Below, piece by piece: positions 5,399 through 64,000 of a stretch of 64,000 bases of DNA. The notes under the pieces were generated by a model, which was not told the DNA's origin, did no database searches, and saw only the letters and a list, made by a program, of their open reading frames with translations. Position 1 is the first letter of the stretch. Each line of letters opens with the position of its first letter. The DNA is taken from NCBI GenBank assembly GCA_041169165.1, contig JBEEJN010000018.1:18736-82735 (forward strand). The letters are read 5' to 3'. The position numbers and the translations under genes are program-made. This stretch comes from Pseudomonadota bacterium. GTDB taxonomy: Bacteria; Pseudomonadota; Gammaproteobacteria; Burkholderiales; Burkholderiaceae_C.

Positions 5399-5616
5399 TA
5401 GTGCACGCGGCCGCGCCGCCTGTCCGGCCAGCGCGCAAACGGTGTTCACGCTCCGGTCAAACTCTTGGGCGAGATCTTCGAATACTCGGCAAAGCGCAGT
5501 TCACAGCGCCATTGCGACCCGCAGCGAACCTCCTCCGAAAAATTTGCGCCTCAGCATGCGTCAAACGCCAGTGACCGTGGCGTGATTGCCTGGGCGTGTT
5601 GCCGCCGCCACCGTCC

Positions 5617-7857
5617 ATGAAACGACCCCTGTCCTCTGCATTCCGATCAGTCGGCCCGGCCGGCGTGCTGACCGTGTCCTGCGCGGTGGCGCTGTTGGCG
5701 GGCTGCGGCGGCGGCGGGGCCGGGGCCCTGACGGGTGCCTCGGGGCCCGGGCGCACGGCCGAGGCGGCCAGCGCCGAGACCCTGGCCTATGTCGGCGAGC
5801 AGCGTCGCGCCTTGGCGCAGGCGGCCGTGGCGACGGCGACCAACCCGACGTTGACGGTGCGTGCGCGCGCCAGCCTGGCGGCCGACGTCGGGCCCATCCT
5901 GCAGCTGCGGGTCGACGGCGCCCTGATCGGCTCGGTCGAGGTGCGCAACAGCGTCGACTGGGCCGACTACAGCTTTGCCGCGCCGCTGCTGAAGGCGGGT
6001 TCCAAGGTCGAGGTGGTGTACACCAATGACGGCACCGTGAACGGCGTCGACCGCAACCTCTTCGTCGCCAGCGTGAGCGATGGTTACTCGGCTCTGTTGC
6101 CCAACACCTCGGCGGTGCTGCTGGACCAAGGCAGCGGCGCCGCCGCCTTTGACGGCCTGAACGTGGTGGCCGGGCGCAGCGAGATGTGGGGCAATGGCGC
6201 GCTGCGCATGAGCTGGCCGGCCCTGGCCGCGATGCCGACCGGCAGCCTGCTGCGGCGCCAGGATGCGTCGCGTTTCTTGCTGCAGACCACCTTCGGCCCC
6301 ACGCCGGTCTTGCTCGACACCCTCGCCCAGCAGACCTATGCGAGCTGGATCGACGACCAGATGGCGCTGCCGGCGAGTGACACCTTCGTGCCGGCGGTGC
6401 AGGCGCGTTACGACCTGGGCGACGACTACCGGCCGGGCGGCACGCAGTACTCGCCCTACGAGGTGTCGCGCGCCTTCTGGGCCAGCAGCAGCACGGCGCC
6501 CGACCAGTTGCGCCGGCGCGTCGCCTACGCGCTGCAGCAGATCTTCATGGTCTCGCAGGCGGACGGCAATCTGTGGCACCACAGCCGCGCCTACGCCGCC
6601 TACCTCGACACCCTCAACCGCGACGCCTTCGGCAACTTCCGCACCCTGCTGCAGGACATGGCATTGAGCCCGGCCATGGGTCTGTACCTGTCGCACCTGC
6701 GCAACCGTCCGGAAGACCCGGCCACCGGTCGGCTGCCGGACGAGAACTTCGCCCGCGAGGTGATGCAGTTGTTCACCCTGGGCCTGTACGAGCTGAAGGC
6801 CGACGGCAGCCCGCAACTCGACGCCGGCGGCCGGCCGATCGAGACCTATGGCAATGCCGACGTGATGGCCCTGGCCAAGGTGTTCACCGGCCTGTCCTGG
6901 GCCTACCCTGACTCGGCGCTCACCAACAGCAACTTCCGCTGGGGGGGACCGGACTACAGCGCAGCCGCTGATACCCGCATGGACCTGCTGCCGATGAAGG
7001 CCTACCCCGGCCAGCATTCCAGCGCCGACAAGACGCTGTTCGCTGGCAAGCCCTGGGCGCTCACGCTCAAGGGCGGCGCCAGCGCCATGGACGACGTCAA
7101 CCAGGCGCTCGACGCCTTGTTCAAGCATCCCAATGTCGGCCCCTTCATCGGTCGCCAGCTGATCCAGAAGCTGGTCACCGGCAACCCCAGCCCGGCCTAT
7201 GTGGCGCGCATTTCGGCCGTCTTCAACGACAACGGCCGCGGTGTGCGCGGCGACCTGGCGGCGGTGGTGCGCGCCGTGCTGATGGACGCCGACGCGCGCG
7301 CCATGCCCGACGCCGCCTTCGGCAAGGTGCGCGAGCCGGTGCTGCGCATCGTGCACTGGATGCGCGCCTTCAACGCCAGCTCCAGCAATGGCGCCTACAA
7401 CTTCAGCTGGCAGATCGCCCCGGCCGGCCAGTTGCCGCAGAACGCACCGTCGGTGTTCGGCGATTTCCGGCCCGGCTACATCCCGCCCAATTCCAGCTTT
7501 GCCGCCCGCGGCGCCACCGCGCCGGAGCTGCAACTGGTCAACGAAAACACCGTTGCTGGCTGGGTCAATGTGGCCGAGGCCATGGGCAGCGGTGGCCTGG
7601 GCTGGAACGGCAATGTGCGCGAGCTCGCGCCCGACTACACCGCCCTGGCGGCAAGGCTCACGGCGGGAGATCCGGCCGGGCTGGTGAACCAGCTCGACCA
7701 GCTGCTGTTTGGCGCGCAGATGTCGCTTGAGTTGCGTCAGGCGATCTTCGAGGCCATCAGCACCGTGGGCGGCACCGACGCCAACAGCCAGCTCAACCGC
7801 GCCCGCATGGCGGTCTTCATCTCGCTGGCCTCACCCGAGTTCCTGATCCAGCGCTGA
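5617..7857 (+). CDS. DUF1800 family lipoprotein with N-terminal CBM60-like (Ca-dependent carbohydrate-binding) module
   Basis: Lipobox LLAGC; segment TVRARASLAADVGPILQLRVDG...VYTNDGTVNGVDRNLFV resembles CBM60; DUF1800 core ASRFLLQTTFGPT, SPAMGLYLSHLRN, PDENFAREVMQLF, GKVREPVLR. Confidence 0.88.
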   Translation: MKRPLSSAFRSVGPAGVLTVSCAVALLAGCGGGGAGALTGASGPGRTAEAASAETLAYVGEQRRALAQAAVATATNPTLTVRARASLAADVGPILQLRVDGALIGSVEVRNSVDWADYSFAAPLLKAGSKVEVVYTNDGTVNGVDRNLFVASVSDGYSALLPNTSAVLLDQGSGAAAFDGLNVVAGRSEMWGNGALRMSWPALAAMPTGSLLRRQDASRFLLQTTFGPTPVLLDTLAQQTYASWIDDQMALPASDTFVPAVQARYDLGDDYRPGGTQYSPYEVSRAFWASSSTAPDQLRRRVAYALQQIFMVSQADGNLWHHSRAYAAYLDTLNRDAFGNFRTLLQDMALSPAMGLYLSHLRNRPEDPATGRLPDENFAREVMQLFTLGLYELKADGSPQLDAGGRPIETYGNADVMALAKVFTGLSWAYPDSALTNSNFRWGGPDYSAAADTRMDLLPMKAYPGQHSSADKTLFAGKPWALTLKGGASAMDDVNQALDALFKHPNVGPFIGRQLIQKLVTGNPSPAYVARISAVFNDNGRGVRGDLAAVVRAVLMDADARAMPDAAFGKVREPVLRIVHWMRAFNASSSNGAYNFSWQIAPAGQLPQNAPSVFGDFRPGYIPPNSSFAARGATAPELQLVNENTVAGWVNVAEAMGSGGLGWNGNVRELAPDYTALAARLTAGDPAGLVNQLDQLLFGAQMSLELRQAIFEAISTVGGTDANSQLNRARMAVFISLASPEFLIQR

Positions 7858-7890
7858 GCGCGCTGCACCTGCCCGTACCTGCCTTGCACC

Positions 7891-9279
7891 ATGAACGCCT
7901 CGCGACGCCACTTCTTGCGCTCCGCCACCAGCCTGGCCGCGGCCCTGCCTGACGCCCGAGCGCCGCTCGCCCTGAGCCTAGCCGGCCTGGGCGCGCTGGC
8001 CGCCGACCGGGCGCGTGCTGCCGACACCAGCACCGGCTACCGCGCCCTGGTCTGCCTGTTCATGCACGGCGGCTGCGATACCCATAACTGGGTCGTGCCG
8101 ACCGATGCCAGCGGCTACGCCGACTACGCCCAGGTGCGCGCGGAACTGGCCTGGCCAACCAGCAAGCTGTTGCCCCTGACCAGCAATACACAGGGCAGCG
8201 GAAGGACCTTCGGCATGCCGACCGAGCTGGCGGCGCTGCGCGGCTGGTATGAGAGCGGCCGCGCCGCCGTGCTGGCCAATGTAGGCACGCTGGTGCGGCC
8301 GATCAGCAAGGCCGAATTCCAGACCGGTGGCGCGGCGGTGCCGAGCAAGCTGTTCTCGCACAACGACCAGCAGTCGATGTGGCAGTCGCTGGCGCCCGAA
8401 GGTGCACCGTCGGGCTGGGGCGGGCGCATGGGCGACCTGCTGATGTCGGCCAATCAGCAACCGGTCTTCACCACTGTGGCGGCCAACGGCAACGCGGTCT
8501 TCCTGACCGGCAACGCGGTGTTCCAGTACCAGGTCGGGGCGGATGGGCCGATCGGCGTCAACGCCCTGAGTTCGACCTGGCTGATGGGCTCGAACAGCGC
8601 GGCGCCGACCTTGCGCCGGGTGTTGCTGGCCGGTCGTGGCCGCAACGAGTTCCAGACCGAGCATGTGCGCATCATGCAGCGCTCGCTCGACACCACCGGC
8701 GTGCTGCGCAGCGCCATTGCCGCCACACCCATCGCTGCCCTGCCGACCGCGATGGCGAATGACTCGCTGGCCAAGCAGTTGCGCATCGTGGCGCAGATGA
8801 TTGCCGCCGGGCCTGGCCTGGGCATGAAGCGCCAGGTCTTCATGGTGGCTATCGGCGGCTTTGACAGTCACGCCAACCAGATGCGCGACCAGCCCGGCCT
8901 GATGACGCGGGTGGCCAACGCCGCCGACTGGTTCCTGCGCGCGCTGGAGGGCGTGGGCATGCTGGGCAACGCCACGCTGTTCAGCGCCAGCGACTTCGGC
9001 CGCACCCTCACCAGCAACGGCTCGGGCAGCGATCACGGCTGGGGCTCGCACCATTTCATCGCCGGCGGTGCGGTGCGCGGCAGCAACATCTACGGCAGCT
9101 TTCCGGTCACCGCGCTGGGTACGACGACCGACATCGGTTCAGGCCGGCTGCTGCCGACCACCTCGGTGACCGAATACGCCGCCACCCTGGGCCGCTGGAT
9201 GGGCCTGAGCGACAGCGAACTGCTGACGGTCTTGCCCAACCTGGGCAATTTTTCGAGCGCCGGGCTGGGCTTTCTCTAG
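7891..9279 (+). CDS. DUF1501 family protein, Tat-exported
   Basis: Twin-arginine SRRHFLR; YRALVCLFMHGGCD, LFSHNDQQ, GGFDSH, SDFGRT, GSDHGWG; directly follows DUF1800. Confidence 0.9.
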   Translation: MNASRRHFLRSATSLAAALPDARAPLALSLAGLGALAADRARAADTSTGYRALVCLFMHGGCDTHNWVVPTDASGYADYAQVRAELAWPTSKLLPLTSNTQGSGRTFGMPTELAALRGWYESGRAAVLANVGTLVRPISKAEFQTGGAAVPSKLFSHNDQQSMWQSLAPEGAPSGWGGRMGDLLMSANQQPVFTTVAANGNAVFLTGNAVFQYQVGADGPIGVNALSSTWLMGSNSAAPTLRRVLLAGRGRNEFQTEHVRIMQRSLDTTGVLRSAIAATPIAALPTAMANDSLAKQLRIVAQMIAAGPGLGMKRQVFMVAIGGFDSHANQMRDQPGLMTRVANAADWFLRALEGVGMLGNATLFSASDFGRTLTSNGSGSDHGWGSHHFIAGGAVRGSNIYGSFPVTALGTTTDIGSGRLLPTTSVTEYAATLGRWMGLSDSELLTVLPNLGNFSSAGLGFL

Positions 9280-17596: not shown

Positions 17597-18846
17597 GCCT
17601 TGGCGCCGGCCTGGTGGGTGGCGATGAACTCGCGGATCTGCGGGTAGGCCATGTCGCGCCAGCGCCGACCCGAGAAGATGCCGTAGTGACCAGCGCCCAC
17701 CACGTCGTAGTGCTGCTGGTTGGCCGGTGGGATGCCGGTGCACAGGTCGTGCGCGGCGCGGGTCTGGCCGGCGCCGGAGATGTCGTCGAGTTCGCCTTCA
17801 ACCGTCAGCAGGGCGGTGGCGGTGATGTCCTGCGGACGCACCAGTTGGCCCCTGACCTTCCAGGTGCCGTTGACCAGCGCGAAGTCCTGGAACACCAGCT
17901 TGATGGTTTCGAGGTAGTACTCGGCCGGCATGTCCAGCACGGCGTTGTATTCGTCGTAGAACTTGCGATGGGCCTCGACGCTGTCGTCGTCACCGCGCAC
18001 CAGGTCGAGGAAATAATCCCAGTGCGAGTTGAGGTGGCGGTCCGGGTTCATGGCCACGAAGCCGGTGTGCTGCAAAAAGCCCGGATAGACGGCACGTCCG
18101 GAGCCGGGGTAATTGGCTGGTACTCGGTAGATGACGTTGTTCTGGAACCAGTCGTGGCTTCGGTTCATCGCCAGGTTGTTGACCGCGGTCGGGCTCTTGC
18201 GGGCGTCGATCGGGCCACCCATCATGGTCATGGTGCGCGGCGTGAACTCGCCATTGCTGGCCAGCAAAGAGATGGCGGCGAGCACCGGCACGGTGGGCTG
18301 GCAGACCGAGATGACGTTGACGTCCGGCCCCAGCAGGCGGATGAAGTCCTGCACATAGGCGACGTAGTCGTCGAGGTGGAAGGCGCCGTCGCTGAGCGGC
18401 ACCATGCGTGCGTCCACCCAGTCGGTGATGTAGACCTTGTGGTCCTGCAGCAGGGTGCGCACCGTATCGCGCAGCAGCGTGGAATGGTGACCTGACAGCG
18501 GCGCCACCACCAGCACCACCGGCTGGGCCTTCATCTTTTCGAGCAGCGGTCCGCTGTCGGCAAAACGCTTGAAGCGCAGCAGGCGGCAGAACGGGCGGGC
18601 CTGGATGACCTGCTCCTGCACGGCCACGTCCACGCCGTCCACCGGCACGCTGGTGATCTCGAAGCCCGGCTTCTCGTATTCCTTGGTCAGGCGATGCAGC
18701 AGGTCGAAGCTGGCTGCCACCCGGTGCGACCCGACACCCTGCGAGAAGGGCGACAGCGGGTGGCTGTAGAGCTTGGCCGTCGCGCTGGCGAATTCGGCGA
18801 ACGGGCTCATCACGGCGCGTTGGGTTTCGTAGAGCTGGTAGAGCAT
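17593..18846 (-). CDS. phaZ: Intracellular polyhydroxyalkanoate depolymerase (PhaZ1 type)
   Basis: MLYQLYE start, VAPLSGHHSTLLRDTV, SVCQPTVP (catalytic Cys), VEGELDD, GHYGIFSG. Confidence 0.93.
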   Translation of the reverse strand: MLYQLYETQRAVMSPFAEFASATAKLYSHPLSPFSQGVGSHRVAASFDLLHRLTKEYEKPGFEITSVPVDGVDVAVQEQVIQARPFCRLLRFKRFADSGPLLEKMKAQPVVLVVAPLSGHHSTLLRDTVRTLLQDHKVYITDWVDARMVPLSDGAFHLDDYVAYVQDFIRLLGPDVNVISVCQPTVPVLAAISLLASNGEFTPRTMTMMGGPIDARKSPTAVNNLAMNRSHDWFQNNVIYRVPANYPGSGRAVYPGFLQHTGFVAMNPDRHLNSHWDYFLDLVRGDDDSVEAHRKFYDEYNAVLDMPAEYYLETIKLVFQDFALVNGTWKVRGQLVRPQDITATALLTVEGELDDISGAGQTRAAHDLCTGIPPANQQHYDVVGAGHYGIFSGRRWRDMAYPQIREFIATHQAGAKA

Positions 18847-53351: not shown

Positions 53352-54620
53352 GTGAAGGGCGTCATCCTGGCGCTCTGGTTCGTCTCGCTCTTCACCGGCG
53401 CGCCCATCGTCCTGACCATGGCGCTGGCCGGGGCGGGCTTCGTCGCCGTCACCGGCATCAACCCGGTCGTCATCGCGCAGAAGCTGGCCAAGGCCGGCGA
53501 CAGCTTCCCGCTGCTGGCCGCGCCCATGACCATCCTCATGGGCAGCCTGATGAACTCCTCGGGCGTCACGGTGCGCATCTTCCGCTTCGCCAGTGTGTGC
53601 GTGGGCTGGTGGAAGGGCGGGCTCTGCCACGCCAACATCCTGGGCAGTGTCATCTTCGCGGGCATGAGCGGCTCGGCCGTGGCCGACGCCGGCGGCATCG
53701 GCATCATCGAGATCAAGGCCATGCGCGACGCCGGCTACGACGGCGAGACCGCGGCTGCCATCACCGCCGCCTCAGCCACCATCGGCCCCATCATCCCGCC
53801 CTCGCTGCCCATGATCATCTACGGCGTGGCGGCCGAGACCTCGATCGGCGGCCTCTTCCTCGGCGGCGTCGTGCTCGGCCTGCTGATGGCCATCGCGCTC
53901 ATGGTCATGGTCCGCGCCATCGCCATCCGCCGCAACCTGCCCAAGATCCCCTTCCCCAGCGCGGCCGAAGTCTGGGCCGCCTTCAAGGGCGCCTTCTGGG
54001 CGCTCATGTGGCCGGTGGTGCTCTTCGGCGGCATGATGACCGGCGTCTTCACCCCCACCGAATCGGCCGCCGTGGCCGCGCTCCACGCGCTGGCCGTGGG
54101 CGTGGCCGAAGGCGACTTCCGCTGGCGCGACGTGCCGCGCCTGGTGGTCGACACCGTCGAGACCACCGGCGTGATGATGGCCCTGGTCATGAGCGCCGCC
54201 CTGCTGGGCTACGCCCTCAGCATCTCGCGCCTGCCGCAGAGCCTGGGCGCCTGGCTCACCAGCACCGTCACCTCACCCATCGCCAACCTGCTGCTCGTCA
54301 ACCTGGTGCTGCTGGTGGTGGGCTGCTTCATGGAGGCCATCGCCGCCATGCTGATCCTCATCCCCATCCTCGTGCCCCCGGCCATGGCCCTGGGCATCGA
54401 CGCCATCCAGTTCGGCGTGGTGGTGGTGCTCAACCTCATGATCGGCACCATCACCCCACCCGTCGGCATCGTCCTCTTCGTCACCGCCCGCGTCGCCAAC
54501 CTCAGCTTCGACGCCGTCTGCCGCGCCACGCTGCCCTTCCTCTGGCCGCTGCTGGCGGCGATCACCTTCGTGCCGGTGCTGACGACGGGGTTTCCACAAC
54601 TAGTGGCCAGCAGAATTTAA
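53352..54620 (+). CDS. dctM: Second TRAP large permease (DctM-like) without its own DctP/DctQ; 3' end runs into low-GC DNA
   Basis: FAGMSGSAVAD, IPPSLPM, FTPTESA, IGTITPPVG; start uncertain with a weak RBS; last ~10 codons are AT-rich. Confidence 0.8.
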   Translation: MKGVILALWFVSLFTGAPIVLTMALAGAGFVAVTGINPVVIAQKLAKAGDSFPLLAAPMTILMGSLMNSSGVTVRIFRFASVCVGWWKGGLCHANILGSVIFAGMSGSAVADAGGIGIIEIKAMRDAGYDGETAAAITAASATIGPIIPPSLPMIIYGVAAETSIGGLFLGGVVLGLLMAIALMVMVRAIAIRRNLPKIPFPSAAEVWAAFKGAFWALMWPVVLFGGMMTGVFTPTESAAVAALHALAVGVAEGDFRWRDVPRLVVDTVETTGVMMALVMSAALLGYALSISRLPQSLGAWLTSTVTSPIANLLLVNLVLLVVGCFMEAIAAMLILIPILVPPAMALGIDAIQFGVVVVLNLMIGTITPPVGIVLFVTARVANLSFDAVCRATLPFLWPLLAAITFVPVLTTGFPQLVASRI

Positions 54621-54638
54621 GTTGGTCAGTTGAAAGCC

Positions 54639-54845
54639 TTAAGGCGGAGCATTGAAAGGGTTTGCAGCCCTTAACATCAACTCGGCAATACGCACAGCCT
54701 TGGTTGCAACTCGGCCAGTTGATTCCATCGGGCTAACGCAATACTCCACTGCTGTTTCGCAACGAGCCTTGCTGAGACACAGGCCCTGAAACGCTGGCTG
54801 AAATGTGCTGCGCTGGCTTTGCAATTGGTTTATCGCCACGCTCAC
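54639..54845 (-). CDS. Small Cys-containing hypothetical ORF (doubtful)
   Basis: 68-codon ORF co-oriented with the island genes, GGAG near the start; no recognisable family. Confidence 0.25.
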   Translation of the reverse strand: MSVAINQLQSQRSTFQPAFQGLCLSKARCETAVEYCVSPMESTGRVATKAVRIAELMLRAANPFNAPP

Positions 54846-54977
54846 TCTCCAAACGCTACTGGAGCAGATAAGTGGAGGCCCTCGTAGAATTATTCCACAA
54901 GCCTAGCTAGTGGTTCGCGTTAACCGTCATCATATTCGCCGAATACACGCAATTCATTTAACGCAGGCGGGCAGTCG

Positions 54978-56843
54978 CTATCGCAAACACTTATTTGAGT
55001 CAAAGGCCTGTTCGCACCGAAGTCGCAATTGCGCGCAACGACGATCACGCTGCAGTTCAGATTCCAGTCCCTCCGGCTGACCTTGGCACAACTCCTGTAC
55101 TTGCGCGCAGTTGTCGCAATGTGGTGCATATCCAATCTGGCTCTCAACTCGATGCACCTTAGCGAAGTTCACACCTAGGCCTGTGGATTGCCTGCTCTCC
55201 GGTGGTGGAACTACGGATGCCCAAGCCAAATACGCAGTATCATTCAAGCATGCAATGGAATTGTAGTCGCCATAGTTTCCGCTCCCTCGATTTTTTTGAG
55301 GAGCCGAACAATGCAGCATGCTCCCGCAGTCGCGTTGCTTCTTGCGCGCATCCTCATTGATACTGAAGCGGCACCTGTTTGTGTTATTTGTAGGTATGCA
55401 CTCATTATGGTCCTCACTTGGGCATATGGTTGGCAAGCAATAACCAGACATCGGATCATTGCCACATGCATCTGATTCCAGTTGGCGTATTCCAGTCGGA
55501 AATCCGCTGTCACATGGATAATCTGTTAGGCCGGAGACGGAGAGATTTTGAACTTCTGATGACGCTACATAATACTCTGTCGCATCAACACGGCCGTTCC
55601 GTGATGCACGCCGATCATACCAGCCAACAAATGCATGCCCACTCCCACCACAAACCCAAGGAAGATACTTGTGACCATCCTGAGATGAACTCACAGTCTG
55701 GACTCGTGTGGTAGGTGAATGATTCCAAGGATAGTCGCGCCCAGGGATTCGTCCAATGTTCTGCCAATTAGTGAGTGTTAATAGTTTGACCTCATGCTTC
55801 CCCCGGGTAATCTCTGTCGCATACGCAATATAGACTGTGTTTGAAAGTGTCGTGTCAATAGATACGGAAGGACTGGAAAGTGTATTTCCGCTGTTGCAGC
55901 GATCAAGGCCTGCGACCGTATTATTAACGTCACAGTAGACGCCTTTAATATTTCCAACGGAGAGAGGCCTCGACTTGTGGTTTATCGCCCATGTAGGGCG
56001 TAAACCATCACTGCATTGAGAGAACCTCTGAAGGCGAATGTTCGAGTCAGTCTTCGCGCTCGCGGCTACAACATATACAAATCCGTCAGGTCCAACTGCA
56101 ATCCGAGGAAAATCACTGCGACGATCCTTCGGTTCTTGATGTTCATCAAGTGGCTTTGTGTTTTTCCAAGTGACTCCTCCGTCCACGCTACAGGAAATAT
56201 ATCCGTGCCAATGCGTATGTGCGGTCCGCTTATTTCGCCAAACAATATACAGCTGATCCTGGCCGCGTCTCCGGTCACCGGAGATATGGGGTTGGTCTGT
56301 GTCGCAGTTGCTTAGCCCAAAACACTTTGCGGCAGGTTGGCACAGCGTCGGATTATGTAATCCACACTCGGGATATGAAAACGTTTCCCCGGCGTCGGTC
56401 GAAACTGCAACTCTCGCGTTTTTGCTCCCCATAGTCGCAAAGTAGAATTTGCCCACTCCGGTCCAAGTTACAGTCGGATCTCTGGCTTCCTTCATTTCGA
56501 CCGGTAATTTTGCTGAAGAAAATGCCTCTCCAGCATCTCTAGAGTACCAGACTGTCGGACGTCCACTGACAGTGCGATCCTGTCCTCGACCGTTTACTGC
56601 TAGTACTATCTCGTTACCGGTTTCGGATACCCCGAGTTCAATTTCGCCGGGGCCTGGAATAATTCGTTTTCTGGAAGAAATCCCCAACTCCGCACCGTTG
56701 CAGGCATCACTTAAGAGCAGTAGCGCTGTGAGCGTTACTGCCAACCTGGCACAGGCAGTAATACTCCGACGCACATTGACTATGCCGACTCGACTTTCGC
56801 CGAATAAATTGCGCTGGCTGGATTGGGTAATATTGCAACTCAT
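54978..56843 (-). CDS. Secreted BNR/Asp-box beta-propeller protein (sialidase-like fold) with Cys-rich C-terminus
   Basis: Asp-boxes SRDAGEAF, STDAGETF, SVDGGVTW; hydrophobic signal LAVTLTALLLL; many Cys; start uncertain. Confidence 0.75.
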   Translation of the reverse strand: MSCNITQSSQRNLFGESRVGIVNVRRSITACARLAVTLTALLLLSDACNGAELGISSRKRIIPGPGEIELGVSETGNEIVLAVNGRGQDRTVSGRPTVWYSRDAGEAFSSAKLPVEMKEARDPTVTWTGVGKFYFATMGSKNARVAVSTDAGETFSYPECGLHNPTLCQPAAKCFGLSNCDTDQPHISGDRRRGQDQLYIVWRNKRTAHTHWHGYISCSVDGGVTWKNTKPLDEHQEPKDRRSDFPRIAVGPDGFVYVVAASAKTDSNIRLQRFSQCSDGLRPTWAINHKSRPLSVGNIKGVYCDVNNTVAGLDRCNSGNTLSSPSVSIDTTLSNTVYIAYATEITRGKHEVKLLTLTNWQNIGRIPGRDYPWNHSPTTRVQTVSSSQDGHKYLPWVCGGSGHAFVGWYDRRASRNGRVDATEYYVASSEVQNLSVSGLTDYPCDSGFPTGIRQLESDACGNDPMSGYCLPTICPSEDHNECIPTNNTNRCRFSINEDARKKQRDCGSMLHCSAPQKNRGSGNYGDYNSIACLNDTAYLAWASVVPPPESRQSTGLGVNFAKVHRVESQIGYAPHCDNCAQVQELCQGQPEGLESELQRDRRCAQLRLRCEQAFDSNKCLR

Positions 56844-56999
56844 GACCGGATGTTCGATAACGTGGTAACTGAATTCCTTAACTCTGCAGCTGTACGGCCC
56901 CCGCACGCCAATGACTGATCAGCTATCGCTGCCCTTTGCGACGAAACTACATTTAGCCTTAGAAGAGTCCACCTCCGTTACAGTATGCACCGTTTCCTC

Positions 57000-57479
57000 T
57001 CACCGAACAGGCACACCAGTGCTGCATGGCGTTGCATTAACCGTCGCTACAAAACTGTCCATTTTCAAACTTGTCGCGACCTGGAATATGTTTCCAGGAC
57101 CTGCCTGGTTATCCCATAATTCCCCTCTGACAGTGATAGTGCTTGGGATATTCGTGCCGAAGCGCCTACGCAGATCAATCGATGCTTCGCCACTCCAGTT
57201 CCCTGTATTTTCCAGTGTTGGTATATTATAACCAAAGCCTAAGCCGCTAACTTGTTCGTCGCTAACAAGCAATCGCACTTCTTGCGTGTGTGATGAGTTG
57301 GCGCTGAACGAAACAAAAACAATGGGAGTGCCGATATTTGTGCAGATATTCGCTGGTTTCACTGACGTGTTTGTGAAATTTCCTGTATGCCGACTGTTGG
57401 CCGTTGGGGAGGTTTGAGAGCCCATGGCCGCGGCCAATGCGGCGCTGGCAACGACTGCCCGTGCTATTTGCAGATTCAT
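57000..57479 (-). CDS. Secreted hypothetical protein (beta-rich)
   Basis: Signal-like MNLQIARAVVASAALAAA; 159 aa; two Cys. Confidence 0.65.
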   Translation of the reverse strand: MNLQIARAVVASAALAAAMGSQTSPTANSRHTGNFTNTSVKPANICTNIGTPIVFVSFSANSSHTQEVRLLVSDEQVSGLGFGYNIPTLENTGNWSGEASIDLRRRFGTNIPSTITVRGELWDNQAGPGNIFQVATSLKMDSFVATVNATPCSTGVPVR

Positions 57480-57498
57480 ATTCCAATCCCATTTGATG

Positions 57499-57912
57499 TT
57501 AACTGAGATTAATATTTGGTGTCGTGGTTGTAGGGTTTTCAAATCCTGATAGACCAAACAACAAAAGCCAACCGGCCCATGCTGAAGCTACATCATCATA
57601 AGACCCACTTACGCCGAAGTTAAAAACCCCCAATGGATTTAACTCCCAAGCCGTATTAAATAGAGCAAGCCAAAGTGCCCAAACTTTCACGGAGCTCCGA
57701 GGGCTCTGTGCTAAAGCCGCCCCAAGACAAGAGAATGCGATTACATGCAAGAAGGTCGGGAGCCAAAGTGCGCGGTTTTCACATTGACTCCACGTATTGG
57801 CTGTGATGAAAGGGAATGCAATCGGTAACTTGGTCCGGCAAAATATATAATATGCCGCACCTAATCCGCAAGAACCAAGAAAAACTATTACTAGAGCGAA
57901 GCGAAGAAACAT
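57499..57912 (-). CDS. Hypothetical membrane protein (loosely VanZ-like)
   Basis: Three to four hydrophobic segments; LPTFLHVIAF, WEL and YDDVASAWAG pattern. Confidence 0.6.
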   Translation of the reverse strand: MFLRFALVIVFLGSCGLGAAYYIFCRTKLPIAFPFITANTWSQCENRALWLPTFLHVIAFSCLGAALAQSPRSSVKVWALWLALFNTAWELNPLGVFNFGVSGSYDDVASAWAGWLLLFGLSGFENPTTTTPNINLS

Positions 57913-58367
57913 TGTAAGTGCAGTATTTTAATTGCTTTTTCTGTTTCGTAAAAACAGTAATGTCCTGCCAAGTCAGTAATTTTCGACAACTTGCGAGTTG
58001 TACTTTGTCAATATCCAGTGATTTTGTTTGGCGCCGACTTCATTGATGCGAACATGTATAGTATCTGCTTCCGTCTGAATTTTCGCAATTTTGGGCAAAA
58101 TTTGCTTCGGCGTTGCTTGATTTGGTTGCAAGCCTGACGTACCACTCTACTCAAAGTTGCATTTCTGGAGACTAGGGCAAACCAGTAGTTTCGCTGATTC
58201 AATGCTTCTCAGAAAAGGCACTTCGTCGGCCCCTAAAATGGAGTGCAACTCTGCCACTGCAATCAACAGCTTGAGCGTGAATTGCCCTGCGACGCCAGCG
58301 GAAAAGACGCTATGGCCGTGCGCGAGGTAAGCGGTGTTAAGCCGCGGTTATCACCTTGGAGATCGGT

Positions 58368-60104
58368 ATGCGTACCACCGTCCGACGCAGTCCAATTACA
58401 GCATCGAGCTTCGCGTTTTTAGCCCTCCTCCTGGTGGCGCTGACTGCCTGCTCCGCAACTCCTGCTGAACTGCCCGCCGCAGAAAGCAAGCCCAATACTT
58501 GCGCTGCGCTCGCCGGCAATTCCATCGCTTCGACAGCCACCGGGCTTCCCCGCGGCAAGGCGGTTGTCGATGCGGCCCAACTGCTGGCCGCCACGCCCGC
58601 CACCGCCACCACCCCCGCCATCGCCGAGCACTGCAAGATCCTCGGCCACATCGACCCGGTCGACCCGGCGGCCGAGCCCATCCAGTTCCAGCTCAACCTG
58701 CCGGTGGCGTGGAATCACAAGGCCTTGCAGTACGGCGGCGGGGGCTACAACGGCACCTTGACCACGGGCATGACGCCGCTGCGTGATGCGGCGCCGGACG
58801 ATGTGCTGCCGCTCACGCGCGGCTACGCGACGCTGGGCACGGACTCGGGGCACCAGCTCTCGCGCTACGCCGCCAACGAGATCGCGCGTTTCGGCCTCAA
58901 CGACGAGATGCTGGCCAACTACGCCTACGCCTCGTACAAGAAGGTGCGCGACGCGGCGGTGGTGCTGATGCAGCGCCATTACGGCCAGGCGCCGCAGCGC
59001 GTCTACTACTTCGGCGGGTCGGAGGGCGGGCGCGAGGGGCTGACGATGGCGCAGCGTTTTCCGGCCGACTACGACGGCATCGTCAGCGTCGTGCCCGTGG
59101 TGCAGCTGTCGATGCTGTTCCAGTCCTACCTGCCGCATGTGCGGCCGCAGTTCGCGGGCGGGTGGATGAAGCCGGCCAAGGTCGAGGCGCTGGCGCGCTA
59201 CGTCAACCGCGTGTGTGATGGCCTGGACGGGCTGGAGGACGGCGTGGTCAACCAGTGGGCCTCTTGCTCACTGAACGCGGCGCAGGTGGACCTGCAGCGC
59301 CTGCGTTGTGATGGCGGAGGTGACAACGGCGATGCCTGCCTGTCGGACGCGCAACTCACGGCCGTGCGTGCCACGCGCGAGCCCTACACGCTGCCTTTTG
59401 CCGTGGCCAACGGCCGGCGCAGCTACCCGCCCACGCTGCTGGGCCACGAGACCACGCCCGACCCGCGCGCGCCGACCATGACGCGCTGGGTGATGGGCAG
59501 CGCCGCGCCCACGCCGGCGGTGGATGCGGCCACGGCCTCGCAGCAATGGCTCTACGGCGCCAACTTCGTGCGCTTCTTCGTCACGCGCGACGCGGGCTAT
59601 GACGTGCGCAACTTCGACCCCGCGGCGCACGAGGCGCGGCTGCGCGAGGTGTCGGCGCTGATCGATTCGTCCAACCCCGACCTCTCGGCCTTCTTCGCCC
59701 GTGGCGGCAAGCTCATCCTGCGCGAGAACATGGGTGACCTGGCGCAGAGCCCGCTGGCCGGCATCGCCTACTTCGAGGCAGTGAAGGCCAGGCTGGGTGC
59801 GGCGGCGGTCGACGCCTCGGCGCGGCTCTACATCTCGCCGGCTTCCACCCACACCGGCCATGCGACGAGCGTGACCACCGGCGACCGCGTGGCCACCATG
59901 GCCGACCTGCTCGACCCGCTGGATGCCTGGGTGAGCACCGGCCAGGCCCCGCCCGAGGCCATCGTGCAGACGGTGAAGAGCCCGGCGCCGCCCCACGCCC
60001 TGCAGGCCAGTCGGCCGATGTGCCGCTACCCGGGCTATCCGCATTACATGGGCGGCGAGCCCAAGCAGGCGGCGAGCTACGCCTGTCGGTCAGCGCTGCC
60101 CTGA
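58368..60104 (+). CDS. Tannase/feruloyl esterase family alpha/beta hydrolase (lipoprotein)
   Basis: Lipobox LTAC; IQFQLNLPVAWN, GGGGYNG, GTDSGH, GGSEGGREG, YDGIVS, NPDLSAFFARGGKL, RPMCRYP. Confidence 0.92.
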   Translation: MRTTVRRSPITASSFAFLALLLVALTACSATPAELPAAESKPNTCAALAGNSIASTATGLPRGKAVVDAAQLLAATPATATTPAIAEHCKILGHIDPVDPAAEPIQFQLNLPVAWNHKALQYGGGGYNGTLTTGMTPLRDAAPDDVLPLTRGYATLGTDSGHQLSRYAANEIARFGLNDEMLANYAYASYKKVRDAAVVLMQRHYGQAPQRVYYFGGSEGGREGLTMAQRFPADYDGIVSVVPVVQLSMLFQSYLPHVRPQFAGGWMKPAKVEALARYVNRVCDGLDGLEDGVVNQWASCSLNAAQVDLQRLRCDGGGDNGDACLSDAQLTAVRATREPYTLPFAVANGRRSYPPTLLGHETTPDPRAPTMTRWVMGSAAPTPAVDAATASQQWLYGANFVRFFVTRDAGYDVRNFDPAAHEARLREVSALIDSSNPDLSAFFARGGKLILRENMGDLAQSPLAGIAYFEAVKARLGAAAVDASARLYISPASTHTGHATSVTTGDRVATMADLLDPLDAWVSTGQAPPEAIVQTVKSPAPPHALQASRPMCRYPGYPHYMGGEPKQAASYACRSALP

Positions 60105-60202: not shown

Positions 60203-60231
60203 AATATGCGGTTCGCAATATCCCGCATATT
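60203..60231. promoter_or_regulatory. Operator-like inverted repeat upstream of the second DUF1800 gene
   Basis: AATATGCGG-N11-CCGCATATT just before the GGAGGA RBS. Confidence 0.5.
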
Positions 60232-60249
60232 CATCACGGAGGATAAGAA

Positions 60250-62661
60250 TTGAGTTGTCTCAAGTTTGAATGGCGAAGCCGACCCGTCTGGTCGGCTTTG
60301 TTGTTTCTGGTGCTGATGGCCTGGGCCGCCGGCCCGGCGCAGGCTTTTTATGTTGGCGCCACCCAGTTCCGTGACCTGCCCTGCGCCGGTGAAGGTGGCA
60401 ACTGCAGCTTTGTCGGCAGCGGTCCGGTGGCTTTTGGCGGCGGCGGCAAATACGTGGTGATCGCCAGTTCCACCAGCCGCGCCTGCAGCGTGGCGGGTTT
60501 TGGCAGCGATCCTGCCCCCGGCGTCGTCAAGGCCTGCTATGTCGGCACCAGCCTGGCGGCGGGCAATCTGCCGGTGGTCGCCGGCGGCGTGGCGTCGGCG
60601 GACGGCGCGGCGCTGCTGGTGGCAGGCGAACGTTTTGCACCCGTGCCCTGTTCGGTGGAATGGGGTCGCTGCAACTTCGGCGGGGTGCAGCGCGTCGCCT
60701 TCGGCGCCAACAACAACTTCGTGGTCGGCTGGGCGGTCGGCCCGGGCAACTGCAACAGCAGCTACTTCGGCGTCGACCCGGCGCCCGGCGTGGCCAAGGT
60801 GTGTTACCTCAGCAGCGCCGGCACGGCGGCCTATCCGCCGGCCACCTTGAACGTGCATGGCATGGACTTCGTCGCCCTGCCGTGTGCCGGCCAGTGGGGC
60901 CGCTGCAACTTCTACGGCAACCGCCACCTGGCCTATGGCGCGGCGGGCAAGTTCTTCATCACCCGCTCGGGCAGCGGGCCGCGCGACTGCAATGCCAACG
61001 CCGTCGGCTACGACCCGGACCCGACGCTCAGCAAGAGCTGCTACGTCAGCCTGGCGAGCTACCCGGCGCGCGCCTATCCGCCGCTCAACCCGGCGTTTTC
61101 GCCCGACCCGCAGCCGTTGCAGGACTCGCACAAGGACGCCGCACGGCTGCTGCAGCAGGCCACCTTCGGCGCCGATCTGGCCGAGATCGAGCGAGTGGCC
61201 ACGCTCACGCCCGAGCTCTGGGTGGCCGACCAGCTGGCCCAGCCGCTCACCCTGCCCAGCCACTGGGACTACGTCGCCAGCGGCGGTCCGCTGGGCACTT
61301 CGAAATACATCAACGCGGTGATGGAAAGCTTCTGGCAGCAAGCGGCGACCGGGCGCGACCAGTTGCGCCAGCGCATGGTCTGGGCGTTGTCGGAAATCTT
61401 CGTCGTCAGCACCGTCAACAGCAGCGTCAGCACCCAGCCCGAGGCCCATGCCGCCTACCTCGACATGTTGTCGCGCAATGCCTTCGGCAACTACCGCGAC
61501 CTGCTCGAAGGCGTGGCGCGCAGCCCGGCCATGGGCTTGTACCTGTCGCACATGCGCAATCAGAAGGAGGACGCCACCGGTCGCCTGCCGGACGAGAACT
61601 TTGCCCGCGAGGTGATGCAGCTGTTCAGCATCGGCCTGTGGCGCCTCAACCCGGACGGCTCGCGCCAGCTCGACGCCCAGGGCCTGCCGATCGCCAGCTA
61701 CGGCCTGGCCGATGTGATGGGCATGGCCAAGGTCTTCACCGGCTGGAGCTGGGGCGGCAGCGACAGCAGCGTCAACCGCTGGTATGGCTGGTCGGGCACG
61801 CCCTGGAACGAGCCGATGCAGAACTTCGCCAGCTTTCACTCCGGTAGCGAAAAACGCATCGTCGGCGGTGTGGTCATCCCGGCCGGCACCAGCGGGCCGG
61901 AGTCGCTGCGCATCGCCCTGGACACCCTGGCCAACCATGCCAATGTGGCGCCGTTCATGAGCGAGCAGCTCATCAAGCGTTTTGTCACCAGCAACCCCAG
62001 CCGCGACTACATCGGCCGGGTGGCTGCGGTCTGGGCCGACAACGGCCGCGGTGTGCGCGGCGACCTGGCGGCGGTGCTGGCCGCCATCCTGCTCGACCGC
62101 GAGGCGCGCGAGACCGGCCACATCGAGGACCCCGGCTGGGGCAAGCTGCGCGAGCCCATGCTGCGTTTCGCGCAGTGGATCCGTGCCTTCAACGCGGTGC
62201 CTTCCACCGGCGTGTGGGGCATCTGGAATCTGGAGGACACGGTGACCAGCCTGGGCCAGAACCCGCAGCGCGAAGCCAGCGTGTTCAGCTTCTTCCGCCC
62301 CAGTTATGCGCCGCCTGGCGCGGTGCAGGACGCCGGGCTCACCGCGCCCGAATTCCAGATCACCCACGAGACCACGCTGACCGGCTACGCCAACTTCATG
62401 TCCTGGACCGCCGAGCGTGGCTATGGCTCGACCATCAAGCCCGACTACAGCGCCCACATGGTGCTGGCCGACAACCCGCGCGCCCTGGTGAGCCGGCTTG
62501 ACCTGGAGCTGACCGGCGGGCGGCTGAGCGACACGGCGCGCGATCTCATCGTCGACGCGGTCGACCAGATCACCCTCATCAGCCCCAACGCACGCCAGAT
62601 CCGCGTCTGGAACGCGATCTTCCTCATCATGAACTCGCCCGACTACGTGGTGCAGCGCTGA
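60250..62661 (+). CDS. DUF1800 family protein with signal peptide and three N-terminal four-Cys repeats
   Basis: RBS GGAGGA plus TTG; signal ending AQA; core AARLLQQATFG, SPAMGLYLSHMRN, PDENFAREVMQLF, GKLREPMLR. Confidence 0.9.
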   Translation: MSCLKFEWRSRPVWSALLFLVLMAWAAGPAQAFYVGATQFRDLPCAGEGGNCSFVGSGPVAFGGGGKYVVIASSTSRACSVAGFGSDPAPGVVKACYVGTSLAAGNLPVVAGGVASADGAALLVAGERFAPVPCSVEWGRCNFGGVQRVAFGANNNFVVGWAVGPGNCNSSYFGVDPAPGVAKVCYLSSAGTAAYPPATLNVHGMDFVALPCAGQWGRCNFYGNRHLAYGAAGKFFITRSGSGPRDCNANAVGYDPDPTLSKSCYVSLASYPARAYPPLNPAFSPDPQPLQDSHKDAARLLQQATFGADLAEIERVATLTPELWVADQLAQPLTLPSHWDYVASGGPLGTSKYINAVMESFWQQAATGRDQLRQRMVWALSEIFVVSTVNSSVSTQPEAHAAYLDMLSRNAFGNYRDLLEGVARSPAMGLYLSHMRNQKEDATGRLPDENFAREVMQLFSIGLWRLNPDGSRQLDAQGLPIASYGLADVMGMAKVFTGWSWGGSDSSVNRWYGWSGTPWNEPMQNFASFHSGSEKRIVGGVVIPAGTSGPESLRIALDTLANHANVAPFMSEQLIKRFVTSNPSRDYIGRVAAVWADNGRGVRGDLAAVLAAILLDREARETGHIEDPGWGKLREPMLRFAQWIRAFNAVPSTGVWGIWNLEDTVTSLGQNPQREASVFSFFRPSYAPPGAVQDAGLTAPEFQITHETTLTGYANFMSWTAERGYGSTIKPDYSAHMVLADNPRALVSRLDLELTGGRLSDTARDLIVDAVDQITLISPNARQIRVWNAIFLIMNSPDYVVQR
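60367..61047 (+). repeat. Three tandem ~59-aa protein repeats
   Basis: 60367-60543, 60634-60810, 60868-61047; consensus F..LPC..EWGrCnF.G...vAfGa......  ....C....fG.DP.P.v.K.CY. Confidence 0.9.
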
Positions 62662-62680
62662 CTCAAGGCAGGACTTCGGC

Positions 62681-64000
62681 ATGAACAACCCCTCGACCCG
62701 CCGCGCCGTGCTGCGCCAGGCCCTGCGCCTGGGCGCGCTGGCCGGCAGCCCGTTTGCCTTCAACCTCGCCACCGTCGGCGCTGCCGCCGCCCAGGCCGCC
62801 CCGACTGACTACAAGGCGCTGGTGTGTGTCTACCTCAGCGGCGGCAACGACCAGAGCAACACCGTCGTGCCCTGCGAAGGCGCGGCCTACACCGACTACG
62901 CCAGCGCGCGCCCGAGCATTGCCCTGGCGCAATCAGCGCTGCTGCCGCTGTCGCCCTATGGCTACGCCGGGCCGCGCCTGGGCCTGAATCCGGCGCTGGC
63001 CGCGCTCAAGCCGCTGTTCGACACCGGCAGCTGCGCGCTGCTGGCCAATGTCGGCACGCTGGTGGAGCCGACCACGCTGGCGCAGCTCCGCGCTGGCTCG
63101 GTGCGTCTGCCCCAGGGCCTGTTCTCGCATTCCGACCAGGCCGGCGCCTGGCAGACCGGCCTGCCGGATCGGCCTTCGGTGAGCGGCTGGTTTGGCCGCA
63201 TCGCCGATCTGATGGCGTCCACCCATGCCGGCAGCGTCGTGCCCATGGGCATCTCGATCGCCGGCAACAACGCCCTGCAGGCCGGCGCGCACACGGTGCA
63301 ATACCAGGTGACGAACAACGGGCCGGTGACCATCGACACCCTCACGCCCACCCACTGGCGCTACAGCAAGACCATGGCGCCGGTGCTGCAGCAGCTCATC
63401 AGCGGCTCGCGCAGCCACCTGATGGAGTCGGCCTACACCGAGATCGGCGCGCGCTCCATTGCCGCCGGGCAGGTGACGGCGGCGGCGCTGGCGGCCTCGG
63501 TCACGCCGTCGACGGTGTTTCCGTCCACCGCCATCGGCCAGCAGTTGCGCATGGTGGCGCGCATGGTCGCCGCCCGCACCGGCCTGGGTCAGACGCGCCA
63601 GGTCTTCTACGTCTCGCACGGCAGCTATGACTTCCACGACACGCTGGTGGCCAGCCAGGGCTCGCGGCTGAAGGAACTGGCCGACGCGCTGGCCGCCTTC
63701 CAGGCCGCCATGGTCGAGCTGGGCGTGGCGCAGGGGGTCACCGCCTTCACCGCATCGGACTTCGGCCGCGGCCTGCAGACCAACGGCCGCGGCTCGGACC
63801 ATGGCTGGGGCAGCCATCACTTCGCGCTCGGCGGCGCGGTGCAGGGCAACCGGGTGTATGGCGCCTGGCCCACGGTGCGGATCGGCGGCCCGGAAGACGT
63901 CGGCCAGGGCCGTCTGCTGCCCACGACTTCGGTCGACCAGTACGCCGCCACGCTGGCCGACTGGTTCGGCGTCGACGCCGGCCTGTTGCCCGAGGTGCTG
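62681..64000 (+). CDS. DUF1501 family protein, Tat-exported, 3'-truncated by the window edge
   Basis: Read by hand (absent from the ORF track because there is no stop): MNNPSTRRAVLR, YKALVCVYLSGGND, LFSHSDQ, YDFH, SDFGRG, GSDHGWG. Confidence 0.9.
   Translation, partial: MNNPSTRRAVLRQALRLGALAGSPFAFNLATVGAAAAQAAPTDYKALVCVYLSGGNDQSNTVVPCEGAAYTDYASARPSIALAQSALLPLSPYGYAGPRLGLNPALAALKPLFDTGSCALLANVGTLVEPTTLAQLRAGSVRLPQGLFSHSDQAGAWQTGLPDRPSVSGWFGRIADLMASTHAGSVVPMGISIAGNNALQAGAHTVQYQVTNNGPVTIDTLTPTHWRYSKTMAPVLQQLISGSRSHLMESAYTEIGARSIAAGQVTAAALAASVTPSTVFPSTAIGQQLRMVARMVAARTGLGQTRQVFYVSHGSYDFHDTLVASQGSRLKELADALAAFQAAMVELGVAQGVTAFTASDFGRGLQTNGRGSDHGWGSHHFALGGAVQGNRVYGAWPTVRIGGPEDVGQGRLLPTTSVDQYAATLADWFGVDAGLLPEVL

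Follow-up and report, generated by a model that had tools for sequence, protein, structure and literature searches.

Two DUF1800–DUF1501 pairs in one window

The stretch of DNA analysed here (the window; 64,000 nucleotides, positions 18,736 to 82,735 of the forward strand of contig JBEEJN010000018.1, assembly GCA_041169165.1) comes from a Pseudomonadota bacterium of the Burkholderiaceae_C. It raises the question of why one contig carries two pairs of DUF1800 and DUF1501 genes, 54 kb apart and both on the + strand, in which related DUF1800 cores follow different N-terminal modules (the heads). A preliminary description of this DNA had read the arrangement as a plug-and-play system, in which a conserved catalytic core is diversified by exchanging targeting domains. 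Our analysis places pair A (5596–9279) and pair B (60250 to past the window end) in two old clades, and the pairs appear to be anciently diverged cognate operons and not the outcome of a local head swap. We propose, with a probability of roughly 0.55, that they are two cognate exported units with glycan-type heads, in which DUF1800 and DUF1501 would work on whatever substrate the heads hold. Taken alone, what this proposal says about architecture and evolution is very probably correct.

The DUF1800-A gene (5596–7857, +) encodes 753 residues, comprising a lipoprotein signal, a CBM60 carbohydrate-binding module (CBM; residues 85–160, nucleotides 5848–6075, +; Pfam PF16841) and the DUF1800 core (6274–7845, +; PF08811). 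The DUF1501-A gene (7891–9279, +; PF07394) encodes 462 residues and has the twin-arginine motif SRRHFLR. The DUF1800-B gene (60250–62661, +) encodes 803 residues: a Sec signal peptide, three repeats with four cysteines each (the four-Cys repeats) and the core (61144–62649, +; PF08811 on residues 299–800). The DUF1501-B gene starts at 62681 (+), is cut by the window end at 64000 and in full ends at about 64057; on the contig it is complete, with 458 residues (L001:3417–4793), and its twin-arginine motif TRRAVLR lies at 62696–62716 (+). The PF08811 scores are 287.4 bits for B (model positions 1–418 of 419) and 282.9 bits for A, with a cut-off of 26.1, and the PF07394 scores are 111.3 bits for DUF1501-B and 117 bits for DUF1501-A, with a cut-off of 27. 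In both pairs DUF1501 lies directly 3′ of DUF1800 on the same strand, with a gap of 33 nt in A and 19 nt in B. Between the pairs the DUF1800 cores are 42–45% identical and the DUF1501 proteins 41–43.5% (42% and 41%, respectively, by BLASTP). The open reading frames, Pfam and BLASTP thus confirm a second pair with a different N-terminal module, as the preliminary description had stated.

The genome (5.38 Mb) holds two DUF1800 and two DUF1501 genes and no others, and these are the genes of pairs A and B. Of the 121 genomes that were sampled from the same bacterial family, 85 have DUF1800, with one to seven matches in each, and two pairs per genome are ordinary for the family. A DUF1501 gene with the RR motif lies downstream of DUF1800 in all 20 related-genome loci that have enough flanking sequence; the same order is seen in loci L034–L037.

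Signal peptides were called by eye and with simple patterns on the sequence. DUF1800-A has the lipobox LLAG/C (within LLAG/CGGGG; the slash marks the cleavage site). DUF1800-B starts with TTG, preceded 6 nt upstream by a GGAGGA ribosome-binding site at 60238–60243. Its predicted signal peptide (60250–60345, +), which reads MSCLKFEWRSRPVWSALLFLVLMAWAAGPAQA and would be cleaved before FY, combines a basic n-region with a hydrophobic core and ends in an AxA site (AQA/F); no lipobox was read in it. The public gene call for this protein (P0001, 787 residues) begins at 60298, 16 codons past the TTG that is preceded by the ribosome-binding site; the basic n-region is lost from P0001 because of this downstream start. 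The N-termini of the DUF1501 proteins are MNASRRHFLR in A and MNNPSTRRAVLR in B, with hydrophobic stretches after the SRRHFLR and TRRAVLR motifs. TatC is encoded in the genome (211 bits), and with a twin-arginine motif in each protein both are predicted to be substrates of the twin-arginine translocation (Tat) system, in agreement with the preliminary description.

Age and inheritance of the pairs

In a tree that combines A-type and B-type DUF1800 proteins with the short, canonical members from related genomes, the three types form groups with 97–100 support. Since the way in which the sequences were retrieved had already set the groups, the clustering is in part built in; the deep split that separates the A-type, the B-type and the canonical proteins is nevertheless clear. 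The best matches to the B core are 56–89% identical to it and those to the A core 57–82%, compared with only 42–45% between A and B, and both A and B have orthologues of 80–89% identity in other genera.

The identity of the DUF1501 partners tracks that of the DUF1800 cores across four comparisons: B with the P0003 locus (83.8% for the DUF1800 core and 78.3% for DUF1501), with the P0062 locus (76.5% and 74.4%), with the P0064 locus (69.5% and 65.1%) and with A (45.3% and 43.5%). These values indicate that each DUF1501 co-diverges with its own DUF1800 and that the pairs are inherited as cognate units. Because A and B fall in separate clades, have close orthologues elsewhere and show this co-divergence of the partners, we regard them as members of two old lineages of cognate operons.

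The two clades also differ in their export signals. By a crude pattern, a lipobox is present in ∼67% of clade A, nearly always as C-G-G-G, versus ∼23% of clade B. These rates suggest that clade A consists mainly of lipoproteins and that clade B mostly does not, and hence that the two types are localized differently.

The heads of the DUF1800 proteins

The triple cysteine repeat of DUF1800-B that was noted in the preliminary description is real, but the unit is ∼60 residues long while the repeat period is 89 and 78 residues, as linkers lie between the units. Repeat 1 (residues 39–98; 60364–60543, +) has cysteines at positions 45, 52, 79 and 96 and scores 75 bits against a profile of the unit (profile A2), repeat 2 (residues 127–187; 60628–60810, +) has cysteines at 134, 141, 168 and 185 and scores 82 bits, and repeat 3 (residues 205–266; 60862–61047, +) has cysteines at 212, 219, 247 and 264 and scores 74 bits. 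The pairwise identity of the three is 36–37%, with four invariant cysteines in each, and in repeat 3 the FGxDPxPG motif has decayed to VGYDPDPT. The consensus of the unit is CAxEGGxCxFxGxxxVAYGAxGxF...G...CNNxxFG(x)DPxPGVxKxCY. No Pfam or NCBIfam model matches it, even at E values of up to 10. An AlphaFold2 model of repeat 2 is a small all-β domain with a predicted local distance difference test (pLDDT) score of 85.8, for which Foldseek gives no significant fold match in the PDB (nothing at E < 1).

In a search with the head region the unit turns up on diverse proteins, N-terminally or C-terminally, in one to eight tandem copies. The hosts include members of glycoside hydrolase (GH) families GH43, GH64 and GH18, α-L-rhamnosidases, M66, M23 and reprolysin-like peptidases, ricin lectins and β-helix proteins. 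A profile built from 79 repeats matches 5,795 clusters among 1.84 billion representative proteins (3,503 of them at E ≤ 1e-10), with up to 13 copies per protein; the commonest partners, among 76 of the best representatives, are GH16, β-helix, GDSL esterase, ricin, galactose-oxidase-like, malectin, subtilase, GH43, reprolysin, PA14 and CBM2 domains. By this distribution the unit appears to be a promiscuous module, mostly of secreted glycoside hydrolases, esterases, peptidases and lectins. As is asked of a CBM in the CAZy sense, it is a discrete predicted fold within carbohydrate-active enzymes (GH43, GH64, GH18, GH16, rhamnosidase and GDSL, and beside CBM2), and we consider it a candidate new family of binding modules. 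Within the same bacterial family the module is found in 24 of 120 other genomes, mostly on other proteins. One genome of this family has a four-Cys unit 3′ of a DUF1800 match in a single open frame of 709 residues (G067:C29:3485–5194), which suggests C-terminal attachment.

The four-Cys unit shares with the SUEL/L-rhamnose-binding lectins (PF02140; PDB entries 5h4s and 2zx0) a C-x-E-G...C start, an aromatic-Gly strand and an FGDPxxGxxK motif, but it is ∼60 residues long compared with ∼95 in SUEL, and the cysteine counts differ. We take the FGDPxxGxxK motif to lie at the sugar site in the rhamnose-binding lectins. Profile A2 matches PDB entry 5h4s at E = 3.7e-4 and CSL3 at E = 0.14, in both cases via this one short motif only. 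An HH comparison of the unit with bacterial SUEL domains, of which few were collected, is weak (P = 0.008), and the LAT-1 lectin domain ranks 39th in the Foldseek search with the four-Cys repeat (TMq 0.45, E > 1). SUEL domain matches occur in four of 401 sampled genomes of the same phylum; in three of these four ∼2-Mb genomes (L067–L069) they belong to membrane-anchored proteins of ∼160 residues with a single SUEL domain and an LGxDPxP motif. The four-Cys unit is perhaps best described as an uncurated, CBM-like mobile module, for which a distant link to the SUEL lectins is possible but unproven.

The CBM60 of DUF1800-A scores 45.7–48.1 bits against PF16841 (cut-off 28.2; model positions 1–74 of 91), and its residues ND...DRNL are invariant among the clade A orthologues. 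Both heads are conserved. Between clade A orthologues CBM60 is 62% identical, the core 72% and the linker in front of CBM60 35%; between clade B orthologues the three repeats are 64–75% identical and the core 85%. These figures point to constrained binding-type domains whose rate of change is a little higher than that of the core. The possibility that the N-terminal modules are dispensable linkers, which the preliminary description had raised against its own interpretation, does not hold, as the heads are conserved among orthologues; the pLDDT of the repeat model is 86.

A survey of N-terminal architectures shows varied modules on a conserved core mainly in clade B. Relatives of the B core (56–89% identical) have N-terminal extensions of between 0 and ∼590 residues. 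Among 120 clade B sequences, 34 have one four-Cys unit, three have two and six have three; some members add β/γ-crystallin/I36 domains (PF00030, PF08964 and PF03995), some carry CBM60 together with an InlB B-repeat (PF16841 and PF18998) and some carry PA14, Big_7 and GLEYA. In the clade B tree a single four-Cys unit is already present on the earliest branches. Its presence or absence switches at least 11 times among the 64 clade B sequences with a usable N-terminus, a count in which losses are overestimated because many of the entries with no extension are metagenomic gene calls that have been truncated. Forms with three copies have at least two separate origins, and in the lineage of DUF1800-B itself the copy number rises from one (P0063–P0069) to two (P0062) and then three (P0061, P0003, P0002 and the window). 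The relatives of the A core (57–82% identical) carry CBM60 in almost all cases, a few with an additional PPC domain, and the four-Cys unit is present in none of the 60 that were tested. Variation of modules on a shared core is therefore genuine for the family, and chiefly for clade B; clade A, in which nearly all members keep CBM60, is not plug-and-play, nor is a local swap in this genome supported.

The DUF1800 core and the putative chemistry of DUF1501

The AlphaFold2 model of the DUF1800-B core is mostly α-helical and very confident, with a pLDDT of 92.4 and a predicted template-modelling (pTM) score of 0.93. The core has no relative in the PDB by sequence, profile or fold (Foldseek TM ≤ 0.13). 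Across clades A and B, 55 of its columns are invariant, and these are rich in Arg, Asp, Glu, His and Asn. No published function for DUF1800 or for DUF1501 was found in the literature searched. The preliminary description had called DUF1800 the catalytic core; this is unproven, since the confident model matches nothing in the PDB and the conserved motifs point rather to DUF1501.

In ten diverse DUF1501 sequences Asp57, Ser149-His150, Asp317-x-His319 and Asp373-His374 are invariant. By inference, and on a weak test so far, these residues resemble the metal site and the serine nucleophile of a hydrolase of the alkaline-phosphatase/sulfatase type. DUF1501 presumably belongs to the alkaline-phosphatase clan of Pfam. 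Comparison of a profile of 35 DUF1501 sequences with one of 13 sulfatases gave a weak match (P = 9e-4 over 127 columns) in the C-terminal half, which is of the SDxG/GGxR type, and the comparison of DUF1501 with the genome's own sulfatase using hhalign was not significant.

Proposed function and its alternatives

In the proposed model the DUF1501 of each pair would be exported in a folded state through Tat and would be a hydrolase of the alkaline-phosphatase/sulfatase type, while DUF1800 would be exported by Sec and would present a large conserved helical core behind a binding head typical of its lineage. The clade A protein would be a membrane-tethered lipoprotein with one calcium-dependent CBM60; the clade B protein would be soluble or secreted, free or cell-distal, with zero to three disulfide-bonded β domains of 60 residues. 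The two proteins of a pair would associate physically, the heads would keep the unit of A and that of B at separate locations, each on a glycan-type ligand of its own, and three repeats would provide multivalency and with it added avidity. The conserved DUF1800/DUF1501 machinery may then act on the head-bound substrate. That this substrate is related to glycans is suggested by the heads, by the co-transfer of a DUF1800–DUF1501 pair with bacterial chitin synthase operons (PMC5122149) and by the Laminin_G_3 or F5_F8_type_C carbohydrate-binding domains that are sometimes found on the partner proteins of DUF1501 in PVC bacteria (PMC3542564).

Several of our results speak against this model. No glycan-degradation genes flank either pair, and none of the genes downstream of pair B is glycan-related. 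DUF1501 has no match to solved structures in the PDB, either with a single sequence or with a profile, and its profile match to the sulfatases has an HH probability of 23% only. The link of the four-Cys unit to the SUEL lectins depends on one short motif and comes with no significant fold match, and neither the repeats of the window (at E values of up to 10) nor any of the 79 repeats match PF02140. Some of the partners of the four-Cys unit are peptidases or kinases, so that its ligand need not be a sugar. Finally, no protein of this genome other than DUF1800-B has the four-Cys unit, and none other than DUF1800-A has CBM60.

The assignment of catalysis to one subunit gives rise to the best of the alternatives. 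The conserved motifs favour DUF1501 as the catalytic subunit; DUF1800 is favoured by the general observation that CBMs belong to the chain that carries out catalysis. DUF1800 might itself be a glycan-active enzyme of a new fold, with DUF1501 as an accessory that strips sulfate-type or phosphate-type decorations or matures its partner. As a rule a CBM-type module is joined to the chain that performs the reaction, the partners of the four-Cys unit elsewhere are nearly all catalytic domains, and the 55 invariant columns of the core, many of them charged, lie in a very confident model. However, DUF1800 resembles no enzyme in sequence or fold, its invariant residues could equally serve the binding of a partner or a ligand, and proteins that are only lectins (the ricin and malectin partners) bear the four-Cys domain too. 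We hold this alternative to be possible but somewhat unlikely. A bolder combination would make DUF1800 glycan-active (in a fold that the PDB lacks), the four-Cys unit a new CBM family (∼5,800 clusters, possibly a minimal relative of the rhamnose-binding lectins) and DUF1501 sulfatase-like, and would thereby describe a new two-enzyme system for sulfated or phosphorylated polysaccharides with specificity conferred by exchangeable heads; we regard it as speculative and rather improbable.

It is more doubtful still that the heads do not target a substrate at all and instead anchor or space the proteins in the bacterium's own envelope or exopolymer (a sheath or extracellular polysaccharide), or serve as structural calcium-binding modules. 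Clade B also uses β/γ-crystallin/I36 modules, which are typically structural domains that bind calcium, both clades are concentrated, by the names of the matches, in bacteria of the Sphaerotilus, Leptothrix, Rubrivivax and Aquabacterium type, and in this genome the heads are on no other protein. Against this, secreted enzymes of a degradative kind bear the four-Cys module in phyla that are unrelated, and CBM60 is, according to its Pfam description, a characterized glycan binder. The two readings are also compatible, as binding to a polysaccharide of the cell's own would still be glycan targeting.

The preliminary description had further noted that the paralogues share motifs and even DNA. A 48-nt stretch at 61573–61620 (+), which encodes ATGRLPDENFAREVMQ, is identical at 46 of its 48 positions to 6721–6768, and the pattern is found exactly twice (at these two places), where none is expected by chance. 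The observation thus stands, but not as a mark of exchange. Across the aligned cores the same codon is used at 70% of the identical degenerate residues, compared with 13 of 15 in the motif (binomial P = 0.13), and the invariance of the peptide together with the codon bias (a GC content at third codon positions of ∼0.9) explains the identity; gene conversion or recent exchange as its source is rejected on this basis. That the copies arose by recent duplication in this lineage and then underwent head swapping or gene conversion, an idea for which the 46 of 48 identical nucleotides and the location of both pairs on one contig 54 kb apart could be cited, is refuted by the tree and retains next to no credence: the cores are only 61% identical at the nucleotide level, A and B lie in different clades with 80–89% orthologues in other genera, and the partners co-diverge.

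DUF1800 and DUF1501 are very large orphan families that travel together, and the lectin-type and CBM-type heads (CBM60, PA14/GLEYA and the four-Cys unit) hint at glycans. Together with the linkage to chitin synthase operons, the heads offer a concrete and cheaply testable lead to an action on glycans. The four-Cys family lacks a Pfam or NCBIfam model and a solved relative, and it matters for the annotation of many secreted enzymes.

Genomic surroundings of pair B

The B-type pairs of three other organisms are bare two-gene units in unrelated neighbourhoods. Two of the three have mutY on one side and a Lon-substrate-binding/rapZ block on the other; the Sphaerotilus pair has a different location. 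In the window pair B has native composition (GC 0.68–0.70). It is preceded, 145 nt upstream of DUF1800-B, by a gene of the tannase/feruloyl-esterase family (58356–60104, +; PF07519, E = 1.7e-109) with a lipobox of its own, LVALTAC. We rejected the tannase as a part of the system, as it is absent beside the pair in three related loci and is separated from DUF1800-B by the 145-nt spacer, which is AT-richer and has its own ribosome-binding site. Neither a terminator nor a promoter was found in this spacer by a consensus scan. Immediately upstream of the tannase gene is a stretch of low GC content (54400–58600; 0.46–0.56 versus ∼0.70 around it).

A perfect 8-bp inverted repeat, ATATGCGG-N11-CCGCATAT, lies at 60204–60230, just 5′ of the ribosome-binding site of DUF1800-B, and may be an operator. 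No conserved upstream operator was found across the four B-type loci (the window and the three other organisms), the regions 5′ of which do not align. DUF1501-B is followed on the same strand by an open reading frame of 482 residues (L001:4833–6281) and then by a gene for a Bug-type periplasmic binding protein.

Comparison with known systems

Of the two heads, that of DUF1800-A can be set beside a described module, as it passes the PF16841 threshold for CBM60, the calcium-dependent xylan-, glucan- and galactan-binding module of the Cellvibrio xylanases. The module is borne there by glycoside hydrolases and here by a DUF1800 lipoprotein, for which carbohydrate binding is predicted.

The pairs as a whole are most readily compared with the canonical Tat-dependent PF08811/PF07394 operon of the Proteobacteria and other phyla, with which they share both families, the gene order, the short gap between the genes, the twin-arginine DUF1501 and the occurrence in multiple copies. 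The canonical DUF1800 proteins score ∼450 bits against the Pfam model versus ∼285 bits for the two subfamilies here, and they are short and without heads, whereas A and B carry N-terminal binding heads of 200–290 residues. A second comparison is with the DUF1501 loci of the Planctomycetes and Verrucomicrobia, in which DUF1501 is found with PSCyt/PSD1 proteins (PMC3542564). The partner there is a protein with a cytochrome c motif and not DUF1800, and pairs A and B have no haem motif. The two systems are nevertheless alike in their Tat-type DUF1501 and in a large partner that sometimes carries carbohydrate-binding domains, and the Planctomycetes and Verrucomicrobia likewise have many paralogous loci with rearranged domains (PMC3542564).

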